In this document: piece after piece, positions 589 through 19,845 of the stretch
Layout of the letters: each line of letters starts with the position of its first letter
Numbering within the stretch: position 1 is the first letter of the stretch
Origin: Octopus sinensis
Lineage: Eukaryota
Reading direction: 5' to 3'
Assembly: GCF_006345805.1 (NCBI RefSeq)
Contig: NW_021836393.1
Location: 1-24,396, forward strand
DNA length: 24,396 nt
Notes under the pieces: generated by a model
Told to the model about the DNA's origin: nothing
Seen by the model: the letters and a program-made list of their open reading frames with translations, nothing else
Database searches by the model: none
Position numbers and translations under genes: made by a program

Positions 589-3094
589 TCAGAATTTGGG
601 CACTATGGCCCACTCAAGTAGAGAGTTATTGTTTACAGAGACATATCCGGTGTAGGGGGTTTATCCGGGATTTCTTGAAGGAATCTGTCCAAAGACTTCT
701 TGAACCCTATAGGGTCAGTTTCTGTTTTAATGCGTTTTGTGTGTGATGTTAAAGAGAGCGGGGCCAATTGAGGTGAATAATTGTGCCGTATTGTTGTTAT
801 GAGATGAGAGTGCGATTTTTGTTTTGGGCGGATGGCACGGGGCCCAAGCCTTGGATGTACCTTAAGGTGATGCCAACATCATTTGGGCAATGCTGATGGA
901 ATATTTTCCCACATCATGCAGATGATGTAGCGCTCACGACGACGTTGGAGAGAATAGAGTTTTGCTTTTCTAGTCGACCCCAATAGTCGAGGCCTGTCAT
1001 GCCATCTATCTTTTTTGTGATTGCCCTTTGAGGTGCTTCGACTTTTATGATACCTTGTATTGTGTGGGGAGACCACAGTGGACAACAGTATTCAAGGTGG
1101 GGTCGGGCAAAGGTGGAGAAGAGAAGGATAATGGTGTGGATATCTCTCGACTGGGAAGTTCTGAGAATCCAGGAACACATTCTGCGGGCCATGTCAACTT
1201 GGTGTTTATATGAGTGGCCCAGCTTACGTTGTTGTCCACAATTACTCCCAAGTCTCTGATGTTGTTGGACGCCGTGAGAGTTTCACCTGAAGGAAGGGAG
1301 TATGGGATTTTCAGGGCATCCTCTTTTCCAAAGTGGATTAGCTCAAATTTATCCTCGTTCAGCAGCATATTGTTTTTTTCTGCCCATTGGATAACAGCCA
1401 GTAGATCTGACTGAAGGCAATGTCCGGTCACTCGCCTCATTTATGACCTTCTGTAGCTTGGAGTCATCTGCAAAGATTTTTATGTTGCTGTGCTTGATGA
1501 TGTCATTAATGTCATTAATGTAAATGATGAAAAGAAGTGGGCCCCAGCACAGTGCCTTGCGGAACGCCACTACTGACTTTGGCTGGGCTTGATTTTACCC
1601 CTTCAACTACAACATGTTGAGATCTGTCTGTCAGGAAACACTTAATCCATTTCAGTAACTTTCCTGAGACACCAATGTTGGATAGTTTTTTCAATAGGAT
1701 CTTGTGATCGACCCTGTCGAAGGCCTTACTGAAATCAAGGTAGATGACATCGGTGTTGGAGCCCTCTCCCAAAGCTCTCAAAATGTCCTCAAAGTGATGC
1801 AGAGCTGCGTTAGGCAGTCCCTTCCATTACGGAACCCATGTTGGTTGGAGATCAGCCGTCTGTTGCTTTCCAGAAATTGGGTTATTTGAGATCTCACCAC
1901 CCTCTCAAATACCTTGATGATATGAGAGGTGAGTGAGATCGGACGGTAATTCACTGCAAGGGACTTGTTTCCCTTTTTGAAAAACTGGGACAACAGACTG
2001 GGACAGAGGTTTTTTGGAATATAGCCAGCATCCAGTGAGTTTCTCCACAGATTAGCAAGGGGAGATGCAAGTTGGTGTCGACACACCTTCAGGACACAAG
2101 CAGGGAACCTATCGGGGCCTACTGCTGAATTGTGTTTTATTTCGTTTATCGCCGCTAAGACATCAGGGGCACTAAACGTTATGTCCGATATAGTGTGTTG
2201 GGGGTTGACATCACTGATACAGCCCAGATCGGCCATATCAGGATTGCTGAAAACAGAGCAGTATTGTTTCTGCAGTATCTCGGCCATGGATTTGGCATTA
2301 TCTTGGAGAGTGCCAGTTTCGTCAATTAGAGGGCCTACAGGGAGACAGTGACCCTGCGTTTCCTCGCAAATGAAAAGAACACTTTGGGGTTGAGTTTGAT
2401 TTTTTCAATGGCCCACTTCTCCTCAGCTGATCTTTGGTTATTGATGAGGGACTTCATGCATTGTTGGAGGTTATATTTTTTGGATTCAAGCAGTGCGATA
2501 GCTGTCGAATGTGTGTGTTGCTGTTGGCAGTACTTTAGTTTGTTAATTTTTTGTGTTGTTCTTTTTATTTTTCTGATAATGGTTTTTCTGTTTTGGGGGA
2601 TTCTGCACTTTTTGTTCACAGGTCTTGGTGGGGAGTGTTTTGCACATATGTCTGTGACGGTGTCTACAAAGATCTGCCAAGTTTTTAGGTTTGGTGGAGA
2701 TGTGTGTATGTGTAAAGGACCAGTCAACATTTGATAGCTCGTTCCTGATTGCATCCCAGTTGGCTTTATGGAGATCCATTTTGTCAAATGGGTGGCTGGA
2801 GGAAGGTCACTAGGATTAGCTTTCGGCTGGTGGAATTTCATGTTACAGAGAACCATGTCATGGTCTGAAAGAAGGGTTTTTTCCACTGTAACGTTATGTA
2901 TAGTGTTAGTGTGGTTACTAAACACTAGGTCCAAAATGTTCTGATGTCTTGTTGGTGCAAGGACAAGTTGGGACAGAAAAACTCATTCGTAAAGTCGAAA
3001 AGTGACTCTGCTGCTTCTTTGTCAGCGGTTGAGGCGGGAGTGCTTGGTTTCAAACAGTTTGTAGTCCAGTCAACACAGGGTAGATTGAAGTCTC
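589..3094 (-). pseudogene. Disrupted ORF2 (partial apurinic-like endonuclease + reverse transcriptase) of the CR1-type LINE
   Basis: Track ORFs 2335..2934, 2543..2779, 1778..2287, 1515..1781, 1349..1570, 1045..1440, 914..1192 and 879..1085 are consecutive pieces of one protein in shifting frames; the catalytic FADD motif is intact. Confidence 0.92.
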
Positions 3095-3124
3095 CTCATG
3101 AGTATTATATTCTCATGATATATA

Positions 3125-3367
<243 letters not shown>

Positions 3368-3368
3368 C

Positions 3369-3600
3369 CAGTCCTGGTCAAAAGTTAGGAACACGTTTTT
3401 AAAAACCAAACTTGTTATGTCCGAGTCCAATTCGATTCAAATATAAAGAACAGGCATTTAATTTGGGCATTCTAATTTTCAAACATGTGTTCCAAAAATT
3501 TGGCCAAGTAATGATATATTGCAAATTAAATATAACTTTAAGCATTTAATATAAAAATATTAATTTTTCAGACCTGAGTTCCAAACTTTTGGCTACGACA
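3369..3600. mobile_element. Tc1-like non-autonomous relic with imperfect TIRs
   Basis: cagtcctggtcaaaagttaggaacac (3369-3394) is an imperfect inverted match to gtgttccaaaaatttggccaagtaatg (3487-3513) and gagttccaaacttttggctacgaca (3576-3600). A CAGT..GG.CAAAAGT start resembles Tc1-family TIRs, and the flanks are TA-rich. Confidence 0.6.
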
Positions 3601-3810
3601 TATATAAATAAATGGTAGCCACTCGAGTCCAAGAAAACGGCCCTGCAATTTTTTACTGAACAATATGTACTGATGATTTGCACAGATGATTTGTTTATAG
3701 TGATCAAATGTATGTGCAGTATAATACCTTATCCTCTTATCAAATTAGCAGTGCTTGCACGGATGATCGGTGGTGTGCGACACGTCAGATATTGAATAAT
3801 CGCAGAGCTT

Positions 3811-3907
3811 CACGGAATGAGGTATTTTGCCCAAGGAAACAACGCAACCCACCCAGCCAGAAATTGGACCCACGATCACGCGATTGTGAGTGCAATACCC
3901 TAACTAC

Positions 3908-3908
<1 letters not shown>
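3811..3908 (-). mobile_element. Degenerate tRNA-derived SINE head + CORE-like segment
   Basis: Reverse complement reads agtagttagggt...gatcgtgggtccaatttc...gcgttgtttccttgggcaaaatacctcattcc, alignable by eye to the SINE at 22736. Confidence 0.7.
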
Positions 3909-3954
<46 letters not shown>

Positions 3955-4449
3955 ATAAATGCCAAAACGAATTTCTGTGTGTGTCAGTGTATCACACTTT
4001 GACCCCCCTCTCTACTATTCAAGACACTATTCTATCACAGAGAATTCGCCAACTCGAAAATGCGATCAATGATGCTCAAATCACCGGTTGCGTGTACTGG
4101 TGTTTACACATACACACAGACTTGTGCGTGCGCATGCGTGTGCGTGAAAATTCAAAATGAAACATGGAAAGGATAAGCGGAAACAGATTGGAAGGTAAAG
4201 AAACATGGAAATCCACTAATCAGACATAGAGATTAGACCACAAGCACACTTTTAAGTCCGAAAACTTTAAATTCAATGACAGAATTTTTTTCTTCTTTTA
4301 TTTAATAGTGATATAGCGAATATCAATCAATCAATGGGGTGATGGACAAACATGGACAAAGCATGAAGGACAGTATGGAAACAATACAGAAGCAGAATAA
4401 ATACTCATAGATATGTATACAAAACACGCATACACACACATACTCATAT

Positions 4450-4835
4450 GGAATGGAAGCACTCCGTCGGTTACGACGATGAGGGTTCCGGTTGATCCGA
4501 ATCAACGGAACAGCCTGCTCGTGAAATTAACGTGTAAGTGGCTGAACACTCCACAGACACGTGTACCCTTAACGTAGTTCTCGGGGATATTCAGCGTGAC
4601 ACAGAGAGTGACAAGGCCGGCCCTTTGAAATACAGTACAACAGAAACAGGAAGTAAGAGTGAGAGAAAGTTGTGTGGAAAGAGTACAGCAGGGATCACCA
4701 TCCATCCTGCCGGAGCCTCGTGGAGCTTTTAGGTGTCTTCGCTCAATAAACACTCACAACGCCCGGTCTGGGAATCGAAACCGCGATCCTATGACCGCGA
4801 GTCCGCTGCCCTAACCACTGGGCCATTGCGCCTCC
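4450..4835 (-). mobile_element. Full-length tRNA-derived SINE (resembles octopus OR1-type) with 12-bp target-site duplication
   Basis: Minus strand starts GGAGGCGCAATGGCCCAGTGG (A box) and includes GTTTCGATTCC (B box). TSD acatactcatat at 4438-4449 and 4836-4847; short TTCCA-like tail. Family name is from recall. Confidence 0.9.
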
Positions 4836-8030: not shown

Positions 8031-8192
8031 ATTATGCGTTCACCATTTGGCACATTTTGAAACTGTAAATGAAATGATAAGCATAAATTAGTATTTATAT
8101 ACTCAAACGGTATTTTTGCATTCATAGACACACATACACACACACACACACATATATATATACAGAAATATACATACGAATCTTTACACACA

Positions 8193-9949: not shown

Positions 9950-9950
9950 T

Positions 9951-10212
<262 letters not shown>

Positions 10213-10442
10213 AGGACAAAGTGAGATAAGGGTTATGAGTGTAACCCACTATGGGATATCATTTATCCAATATACTGCCAGTAAAGTACCCAGAAGGCTA
10301 ATACATAACTGCTAAGAATTGCAATGCAATTAATTCATTTATTGTATTATATGGGCGAAGGTAAAATGTTTTATCTCAAATTCACAAATAATAAAAATAA
10401 AAAAATTTTATTTCATATCTCAATTCATTTTATAATCACAAA

Positions 10443-11360
10443 TCCAGATAATAGAGGAAATACCAATTCAACTGCAATAATATTCATAATTAACTATTAT
10501 TTAGATAAATAGGAACATCTAAATCCAACCGAATAAGACAGAATAAAACAATATACATCATAAGTAAGATAATACCATAAGATAATACATATATAAAATG
10601 TATCTTACAGCTGTTTCAGCCTGTAGATAAGAGTATCTCATTATGCCCATATTAGTTAGATGTATTGAGGTAATATGCAGTTAAAAATGAGTTACTTTGG
10701 TACCTGTGTGTATATATATGTATGTAGATTTAGATTTTCGCTGTATGATATATGAACGTAATGACATTGTATATTGTGACATTGTATATTGTTTTGCATT
10801 ATTTTATTTTATTGAATTAATTTACTGACATCTCCCTTATGCATCTGTCTATATATTATGTTACACTATATTATATGTTGTATATTTAATATGTAATATG
10901 ATATATATTTTATTATGTTGTGTTACACTGTATTGCATTGTATTATATTATACTATATTTTATGTGGTATTTTCCATCTACTAAGTATTGTGAATAGCAG
11001 AAAGCACATATTCCTTTATTGGTATTATTAATAATAATAATAATGTTAATAGTTTTTAGTAATGTAATACAATGAACTTTGGACTTTGTATGTGTACACT
11101 TTGATGTGGATATATATATATATATATGTATATTCCAGTATATAGATCTGATTAACTGTAACCTTATGTGTATATATATTAGTATGTATATACTTATATA
11201 TATATATGTATATGTAGGTGGATATACGCTTATATATATATGTATATATGTATATATACATATTCTTGTATATGTGTACCTTGTTTAATATTCATATTTG
11301 CATTTTATATCTTCATTTTATATCTTTATAATTGTACTTATAATCTTTGACGAGGCCTTG

Positions 11361-11424
<64 letters not shown>

Positions 11425-11656
11425 TTCATTTTAACTGCATATTTACCTCAATACATCTGACTAATATGGGCATAATGCGATACTCTTATCTACAGGCTGA
11501 AACAGCCGTAAGATCCTTTTTATATGTATTATTCTTATGGCATTATCTTACTTATTGATGTATATTGTTTTATTCTGTCTTATTCTGTTGGATTTGGATA
11601 TTCCTATTTAATCTAAATAATTAGTTAATAAATTATATGAATTGGTATTATCTGGA
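10443..11656. repeat. Long inverted repeat (arms ~10443-10692 and ~11423-11656) of a hammerhead-bearing, probably Penelope-like repeat
   Basis: Left arm atcttacagctgtttcagcctgtagataagagtatctcattatgcccatattagttagatgtattgaggtaa is the near-exact reverse complement of right arm ttacctcaatacatctgactaatatgggcataatgcgatactcttatctacaggctgaaacagccgtaagat. Similarity extends over about 230-250 bp. Confidence 0.92.
11343..11514 (+). ncRNA. Split type I hammerhead ribozyme motif with ~135-nt insertion in stem-loop II
   Basis: Stem I atct(11343-46)/agat(11511-14); core TTGACGA(11347-53); stem II GGCCT(11354-58)/AGGCT(11494-98); GAAA(11499-502); CAGCCG-TA. The inverted copy has the perfect palindrome GAAACAGCTGTA. 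Confidence 0.65.
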
Positions 11657-11698
11657 AGTTGATGATTGAATGACATCTATTCCTCCATTTTCTTATTT

Positions 11699-11734
<36 letters not shown>

Positions 11735-12898: not shown

Positions 12899-13334
12899 AA
12901 CGTGAAAAGATCATTTCTACAGATTTTCTATAGATATTTATATCCAGCAATGATTCTGTTACGACGTTTCGTATTCGAGACGTCAGATGTAAACAACCAA
13001 TGAGATCGAAGATGAAAAAGTGTGTAATAGGTGTATATGCCATTTCGGGAGATTTTGCTTCTTGATCAGCTCTCATCAAACCCATTAATCATCCACGAAC
13101 TCATTGCTTAGATAGCCACAACATATAGCCTGTAACGTTATTGGATCTACCAATTTACGTATTAAACATACCTGGAAGATGAGACGTAAACATTTAATGA
13201 CTTGTAGGCACGCGTAATAAATATTTTTTTATAGAACATACATGCACTTCATCAAAATTGCCCAATTATTACATAACAGTTGTAAAAAAACATTACGCAA
13301 TCTTGCACTTTGCCTCATCAGTGTTCCGCATATA

Positions 13335-19626: not shown

Positions 19627-19762
19627 ATTATTGGTGAATTGAAGAAATGGAGCTGAACGCAGATTGAACAGAAATCGTTTTATTTCATTCTACACGTGTT
19701 TCGAAATAAAACGATTTCTGTTCAATCTGCGTTCAGCTCCATTTCTTCAATTCACCAATAAT
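19627..19762. repeat. Perfect 60-bp inverted repeat with 16-nt spacer
   Basis: Arm 19627-19686 is the exact reverse complement of 19703-19762; spacer is attctacacgtgtttc. Confidence 0.97.
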
Positions 19763-19788
19763 ATATATATATAATATTATATATATAT

Positions 19789-19825
<37 letters not shown>

Positions 19826-19845
19826 TATACATATACATACATATA

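Follow-up and report, generated by a model that had tools for sequence, protein, structure and literature searches.

A probably inactive type I hammerhead motif with a predicted rod-like helix II in the terminal repeat of a Hydra-clade Penelope-like element from an octopus genome

The window, which is the whole stretch of DNA analysed here (24,396 nt), comes from contig C12864 of the Octopus sinensis genome (G000; 2.7 Gb, microsatellite-rich), and a general repeat search of it was dominated by microsatellites. When both strands were scanned for type I hammerheads with long loops allowed, positions 11343-11514 were the sole candidate. The first-pass annotation had described a split hammerhead there, and every element that it named was found in place, with 135 nt between the arms of stem II. 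The motif lies in one of two 5'-truncated terminal repeat (pLTR) pieces that form an inverted pair inside (TA)n. The window holds nothing more of the element, and a tblastn search of the window gave no match to the element's ORF. The parts are listed below.

9950-10213, no strand: (TA)n target microsatellite, left flank.
10200-10697, minus strand: inverted second pLTR piece of the same insertion, with the 3' half of a hammerhead only (10602-10622), then the far 3' end of the element and (TA)n.
10696-11703, plus strand: 5'-truncated 3'-UTR/pLTR piece of a Hydra-clade Penelope-like element (family A) with (TA)n at its end, 82-85% identical to L101 and L025 by blastn.
11343-11346, plus strand: stem I, 5' strand ATCT, pairing with 11511-11514.
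11347-11353, plus strand: first core box TTGACGA, the C3-to-U form of CUGANGA; family copies have CTGACGA.
11354-11498, plus strand: long helix II region, 145 nt; typical family A copies have about 99 nt.
11354-11358 and 11494-11498, plus strand: basal 5-bp arms of helix II, GGCCT and AGGCT, with the 135 nt between them.
11361-11423, plus strand: copy-specific (TA)n expansion of a 5-6-unit TA bulge on the 5' side of helix II, with about 45 extra nt in the alignment to L020.
11499-11510, plus strand: second core box GAAA, stem III palindrome and GUA triplet; predicted cut 3' of 11510.
11499-11502, plus strand: GAAA.
11502-11509, plus strand: stem III palindrome ACAGCCGT, one change from ACAGCTGT.
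11510, plus strand: A, position N17.
11511-11514, plus strand: stem I, 3' strand AGAT.
11701-11731, no strand: (TA)n target microsatellite, right flank.

Besides the C3-to-U change and the enlarged TA bulge, the window copy differed from an intact family A copy by an altered pair in the middle helix and by one change in the palindrome. The energy of the palindrome duplex was -1.7 kcal/mol, compared with -11.1 kcal/mol for the intact sequence. Basal pairs of helix II exist but are predicted to be unformed (probability 0.00), and the hammerhead fold lay 7.3 kcal above the minimum, with GAAA covered by a competing hairpin. A U3-G8 wobble makes for weaker catalysis. Among reported variants, neither C3G nor G8C mutants of a PLE hammerhead cleave (PMC11167929), and U3 is found naturally together with A8 (PMC4209133). 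Because of U3, the broken palindrome and the predicted failure of basal helix II, the window copy is probably an inactive fossil, as the first-pass annotation had suspected. The same annotation had taken the (TA)n tract for cargo tolerated by the loop. Large TA expansions were seen in a few single copies only and are therefore to be read as decay after insertion, not as cargo; in the window copy, slippage of the short TA bulge accounts for the length of 145 nt. It had also pointed to the perfect palindrome of the inverted copy; this copy (minus strand, 10602-10622) does keep ACAGCTGT, but it is truncated at 10697 and lacks the CUGANGA half, so that it is an incomplete hammerhead and cannot be an intact partner.

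Elsewhere in the window, CTGATGAGGC occurs exactly at 13312-13321 on the minus strand, the GAAAC-palindrome half being absent from the next 200 nt, and is probably a chance or decayed motif. Positions 19629-19845 hold a fold-back fragment of a 55-nt hammerhead family (family D), 94-99% identical to L118, with the 3' half GAAACACGTGTA only (minus strand, 19691-19702) and an inversion junction just upstream of GAAA. On the minus strand, 914-2982 holds disrupted ORFs that were assigned by eye to a LINE-type element, with pieces of both its endonuclease and its reverse transcriptase (RT).

Copies of the motif were then counted in G000. The 3' half had 278 exact copies and the 5' half 535, versus 0 and 2 in the respective controls (reversed for the 3' half). 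The first-pass reading had been staked on other copies also having the upstream half. Among 30 loci picked on the 5' half alone, the downstream 3' core was exact in 25, near-exact in 4 and absent in 1; among 20 loci picked on the 3' half, the 5' half was exact in 9, variant in 3 and lost by truncation in 8. For a census of spacer lengths, the pattern CTGANGAG-N-GAAACANNTGTM was used with exact cores and reversed-pattern controls, and it gave 278 matches at N = 8-38 (control 13), 13,772 at N = 39-74 (control 25), 2,181 at N = 75-105 (control 12) and 313 at N = 106-150 (control 28), where a few starts may fall in two bins. Spacers longer than 38 nt thus made up 16,266 of the 16,544 exact-core matches (about 98%), a denominator that comprises one stem III type with exact cores, other short hammerhead types lying outside it. 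A family of repeats that carry type I hammerheads with an extended region II had been proposed from the window, and counts far above the controls bear this out. The main region II sizes were about 55, 85 and 100 nt, spread over many families. The arms of families A (that of the window, about 99 nt), B (100 nt), C (95-107 nt) and E (82-86 nt) were related to one another, and arms of 46-65, 76-77 and 88 nt had no evident similarity to them.

An older family has a region II of 128-133 nt (L322, L331, L337, L338 and L340, on G000 contigs C1 and C2) and may be the longest native form; its basal helix is predicted to pair purines with pyrimidines, its folding z is near 0 and its stem I is weak. At another locus (L423, G000 C1:22011359-22013211), three hammerheads with 51-nt arms and a 7-bp stem I stand in tandem at a spacing of about 533 nt, together with one inverted. 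This arrangement resembles that of retrozymes, and dimer cleavage would come easily there.

The motif belongs to the type I minimal hammerheads and sits in the 3' repeat (pLTR) of a retroelement of the Hydra clade of Penelope-like elements. Starting from ORFs near family copies, we found at least 150 RT-like matches in G000. In both L115 and L116, a 960-aa ORF lies between two hammerheads, one per pLTR, at distances of about 0.5 kb on its upstream side and about 2.2 kb on its downstream side, with (TA)n at the element end, and the two hammerheads of L116 are 5.6 kb apart; the linkage to Penelope-like ORFs anticipated by the first-pass annotation was thus found. A same-strand downstream hammerhead was present at 15 of 20 ORF-picked loci chosen among the RT-like matches (one of them, L101, with a core change), and the spans were 54-103 nt, none being short. 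The L116 ORF contains RIRWR, SDKT, ITMGS..AEV.DLVG, YRDD, CNCRNKNKC and VY..YIG, and by eye it agrees motif by motif with Hydra-1_Obim and Hydra-1/2_Amil. It shows the features given for the Hydra clade by Craig et al. 2021 (PMC8557442), namely a single ORF, an RT with RWK and DKT, a C-terminal endonuclease and a CxCX5C linker. Pfam gave no RT match for the element protein, and its nearest named protein relatives were from an octopod. The ORFs of L116 and L119 are 900-960 aa long with long asparagine-rich insertions between RT and endonuclease, and their database relatives are about 700 aa long. In an RT tree built solely from G000 ORFs and database homologues, the 54-55-nt families formed one clade (100/100) apart from the 85-103-nt families, with RT core identity of about 51% between the two groups. 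pLTRs in partial tandem, inverted 5'-truncated copies and insertion into (TA)n were all observed (L115, L116 and L110, and the inverted pair of the window).

Family A is joined to an ORF at a single locus, L101, its other copies being truncated. There, an ORF at 2023-4737 is followed by the 3' UTR, a family A hammerhead at 8125 and the element end; the locus is collinear with L110, which belongs to family B, and shares 82-85% identity with the two pieces in the window. Two further ORFs near family A copies (L011 and L025) were considered and rejected as the ORF of family A; their lineage is more distant, at 55% and 42% to L116, and they are probably neighbours. For families other than A, B, C, D and E, with regions of 46-94 nt, a same-strand upstream Hydra-like piece was found at only three of 40 loci (L313, L426 and L427).

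At many family A and B loci, including the window (11703 and 10200-10216), there are two copy ends about 190 nt apart. Among 46 copies scored at the first end, 21 stopped in a microsatellite, 19 ran on and 6 were other. This double end resembles the PLE 'tail' but is much longer than the 30-40 bp described for it (PMC8557442). At L261, L231 and L011, inversion junctions lie at or beside GAAA and the palindrome, 13-16 nt upstream of the cut, as if the hammerhead fold promoted template switching in these few cases.

The core of the family reads CUGANGA...GAAA...UH in order in the 16,544 exact matches, the window copy having the one change at U3. Helix II closes beside the core with compensatory pairs kept, and helix I is open-ended and flanks the cut site. 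Stem I has 4 bp in families A and B, 2-3 bp in family E, and 5-8 bp with differing paired sequences in several unrelated families. Stem III of the A15.1-U16.1 type had A-U and C-G in all 53 aligned rows, which had been selected by pattern. Where the centre of ACA-NN-TGT was left free, it was self-complementary in 23 of 30 long loci, and the centres GC, CG, TA and AT were all found across families, in accord with the palindromic stem III that the annotation had described. Covariation in stems I and II had been suggested as a check; compensatory changes were found in helix II, but stem I, like stem III, hardly covaried within families A, B, C and E. The loop 1-loop 2 tertiary contact of canonical fast hammerheads is described as absent from minimal PLE motifs (PMC6155905). 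In Rfam, no hammerhead was among the 150 listed of 170 matches to the window at E <= 1, apart from which there was microsatellite-driven miRNA noise only, and none was obtained for seven family E loci at E <= 10. This miss is expected because the insert is so long, and a published descriptor limits loop 2 to 3-10 nt, so that length-capped searches do miss the long form, as had been surmised.

The annotation had treated the space between the arms as a loop that tolerates cargo. Our results instead indicate that the insert is a long helix II, predicted to form a rod that is maintained by compensatory changes. For the first 30 loci of the 75-105-nt class, the folding z was below -2 in 24 of 30 inserts and in 2 of 30 downstream flank controls of equal length, with medians of -4.6 and +0.4, respectively. 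The alignment of 53 rows from the four related families gave no long helix in RNAalifold, only a local hairpin of 4 bp, because family C misaligns. With 42 rows of families A, B and E (the 53 rows minus nine family C rows and two family A rows with longer TA bulges), RNAalifold recovered the long helix II unprompted, with a covariation term of -2.45 and two-sided change in 7 of 23 pairs. Neither alignment included the copies with large TA expansions or short deletions (the window, L041, L004, L069 and one copy in L014). When the structure was specified on the 53 rows, 89.5% of the cells were paired, compared with 30-42% in slid controls, and 92 cells were two-sided, a level reached in 0 of 500 shuffles; each cell is scored per sequence in a set of relatives and does not stand for a separate event. 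Covarying pairs numbered 10 (equalled in 27 of 500 shuffles), and the level of further pair types was reached by 192 of 500 shuffles. Since the structure was derived from these very rows, which are related, the covariation is good evidence, not a formal proof. Between families, A-U was exchanged for G-C, U-A for C-G and G-C for A-U in the second and third helices, and the core boxes stayed constant while the helix II sequence differed fully across families whose RT cores are about 51% identical. At the stem I 5' strand and first core box, each of these four families can also fold into a short competing hairpin (UCUC with GAGG) that would hide CUGANGA until the far arm has been transcribed; it could be a folding delay or chance.

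We consider it likely that the window holds a decayed type I minimal hammerhead from a Hydra-clade PLE terminal repeat, its helix II being predicted to form a long and conserved rod, and that intact members self-cleave after GUA or GUC as dimers through the 8-nt stem III palindrome, probably with help from the element protein. The rod would fold during transcription and place CUGANGA beside GAAA, thereby taking the place of the short helix II found in other Hydra elements. Pairing via ACAGCUGU would bring together two motifs, whether those of one element (5.6 kb apart in L116) or those of separate RNAs, and cleavage would free a unit-length RNA. The arm itself would most likely serve as a stabilising or protein-docking surface, held by selection on master elements. 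The element protein may be required for cleavage, as for the Anolis motif (PMC11167929).

The arm could also be neutral in an otherwise active hammerhead, helix II having grown by small duplications and doing nothing beyond closing the junction, a reading to which we give about one chance in three. Its length and sequence vary freely among families (46-107 nt, with one older family near 130 nt), other Hydra-clade elements manage with short arms, and selection merely against misfolding would also yield compensatory changes. Against this, long forms make up about 98% of the G000 matches with an exact core, across many families, and the middle helix, 20-30 nt from the core, preserves its pairing by two-sided changes.

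That intact members cut RNA is likely, judging from the core boxes and their order, the copy number, the pLTR positions, the helix II length classes and the compensatory changes, all of which were observed directly. The genomic copies bear on which RNA was copied. There was no pile-up of 5' ends at the cut site: of 86 copies in family E, 1 began within 5 nt of it and 74 more than 5 nt upstream, and of 29 in family A the corresponding numbers were 2 and 19. Most copies run through the cut site, and the templates were therefore mostly uncut or rejoined RNA, which speaks against a central part for cleavage in producing new copies. For each of the 10 family copies tested, the hammerhead fold of the monomer was 4-12 kcal/mol less stable than the minimum, and five of them, both family A copies among these, had a predicted probability below 0.2 for basal helix II. 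These predicted folds fit a need for dimerisation or a chaperone, and they fit a weak ribozyme as well. Contigs from seven runs that were only guessed to be RNA contained family sequence, some of it across the cut site, by which neither expression nor cleavage is shown. In published work, dimer cleavage of minimal PLE hammerheads has been proposed and weakly observed (PMC4209133), and protein-assisted cleavage has been reported for the Anolis Poseidon hammerhead (PMC11167929).

Since most copies run through the cut site, the fold might instead be a recognition signal on the RNA for the element's RT/endonuclease protein, with cleavage lost or rare, which we regard as unlikely. It accords with the report that Anolis hammerhead mutants left insertion in vitro unaffected and that no RNA-seq reads ended at the cut (PMC11167929), and with the weak in vitro cleavage of minimal PLE hammerheads (PMC4209133). 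However, the catalytic letters, the GUH triplet and the perfect palindrome persist across diverged families, whereas N7 and the palindrome centre vary, as a hammerhead predicts. We also considered that the insert might be a spliceosomal intron, with a short hammerhead re-formed once it is spliced out. Intron-like signals are present in families A and C, namely GT, a CTGAC/CTAAT resembling a branch point and, right before GCT-GAAA, a YAG rich in pyrimidines, and Penelope pLTRs can contain introns (PMC4209133), but the final AG is absent from families B and E, the arm pairs with covariation and splicing there would yield a poor helix II; on these grounds the reading was rejected as very improbable, and the contigs of the seven runs, a weak test as contigs only, contained no splice joints. 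A chance juxtaposition of two short motifs around a microsatellite has practically no standing, for although the 5' half with one mismatch occurs five times in the window versus 1.4 expected, thousands of genomic copies at fixed spacing, against tens in reversed-pattern controls, refute it.

Censuses of hammerheads depend on descriptors in which region II may not exceed about 24 nt. In G000, this cap hides about 98% of the exact-core motifs of one stem III type, and the hidden motifs exceed the largest per-genome PLE count of the 2014 survey (PMC4209133). We tentatively suggest, with less than even confidence, that long-armed hammerheads are a hidden majority class in which, in this lineage, helix II has become a functional domain of 50-130 nt that docks protein or times cleavage, that animal ribozyme counts are several-fold too low, and that some PLEs listed without a hammerhead or as 'half core' have a long arm. 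Young intact elements, graded arms (55, 85 and 100 nt) and natural compensatory changes make the role of the arm directly testable, and a folding aid, binding of the element protein and neutrality are thus distinguishable. There are also grounds for re-screening PLE clades reported without hammerheads.

Hammerheads in PLE pLTRs, Hydra included, are already known, and the long-rod helix II class is the new part. In the part of the literature covered, including PMC6765202, PMC3088659, PMC10085705, PMC7229834, PMC6155905 and bioRxiv 10.64898/2026.07.22.740005, we met no account of hammerheads with a long-rod helix II forming the dominant class of a genome, and long region II variants may be described elsewhere. 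Among the closest systems are the Hydra-clade hammerheads of Craig et al. 2021 (PMC8557442), which are likewise of type I, on the sense strand, in the 3' pLTR and associated with (TA)n insertion, several of them with an ACA..TGT-type stem III, and whose protein likewise has RW(K/R), DKT, a C-terminal GIY-YIG-like part and a CxCX5C linker. In contrast, helix II plus loop is at most about 25 nt in the 26 Hydra rows of its File S2 (7 bp + 8 nt in Hydra-1_oBim), compared with 54-107 nt here, and the Hydra elements described in that paper are under 3 kb, whereas ours have an ORF of 900-960 aa and a unit of 5.6 kb (L116). The core searches of that study used a 7-17-nt spacer, and its authors noted eight 'half core' cases at 35-50 nt. 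Among 78 Hydra-like metagenome loci, we found a short hammerhead (shortest span <=25 nt) in 52, a long one only in 0 and none in 26, and a stricter scan gave 26 short ones of up to 29 nt; as far as tested, the long arm therefore appears to be lineage-specific.

The min-HHRs of metazoan PLEs (Cervera and de la Pena 2014, PMC4209133) share with the octopus motifs the short stem I, the palindromic 15.2-16.2 positions, the dimer logic, the many families per genome, the mostly lone truncated copies and the opposite-strand pairs. Their helix II has at most 7-8 bp (descriptor: stem II 3-7 bp, loop 2 3-10 nt), and the survey maximum was about 9,000 motifs per genome, compared with about 16,000 long ones here. 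Unlike them, most long families here have no extra base between positions 9 and 10.1. The nearest length precedent for the 54-55-nt families is PLE-X1 of spike mosses, where region II reaches about 50 nt (PLE-X1_sMoe has 9 bp and a 35-nt loop; PMC8557442 File S2). These are two single rows, flagged as deviating, from plant Chlamys-type elements, and neither a long rod nor 85-105-nt forms are described there. The discontinuous Clec2 hammerhead of mammals (PMC6155905) is likewise a natural motif whose halves lie far apart in sequence. It is, as described there, a type III motif with an insertion of 150-1500 nt in helix I at a single domesticated 3' UTR locus, whereas the octopus motif is of type I, has its insertion in helix II and occurs in thousands of mobile copies.
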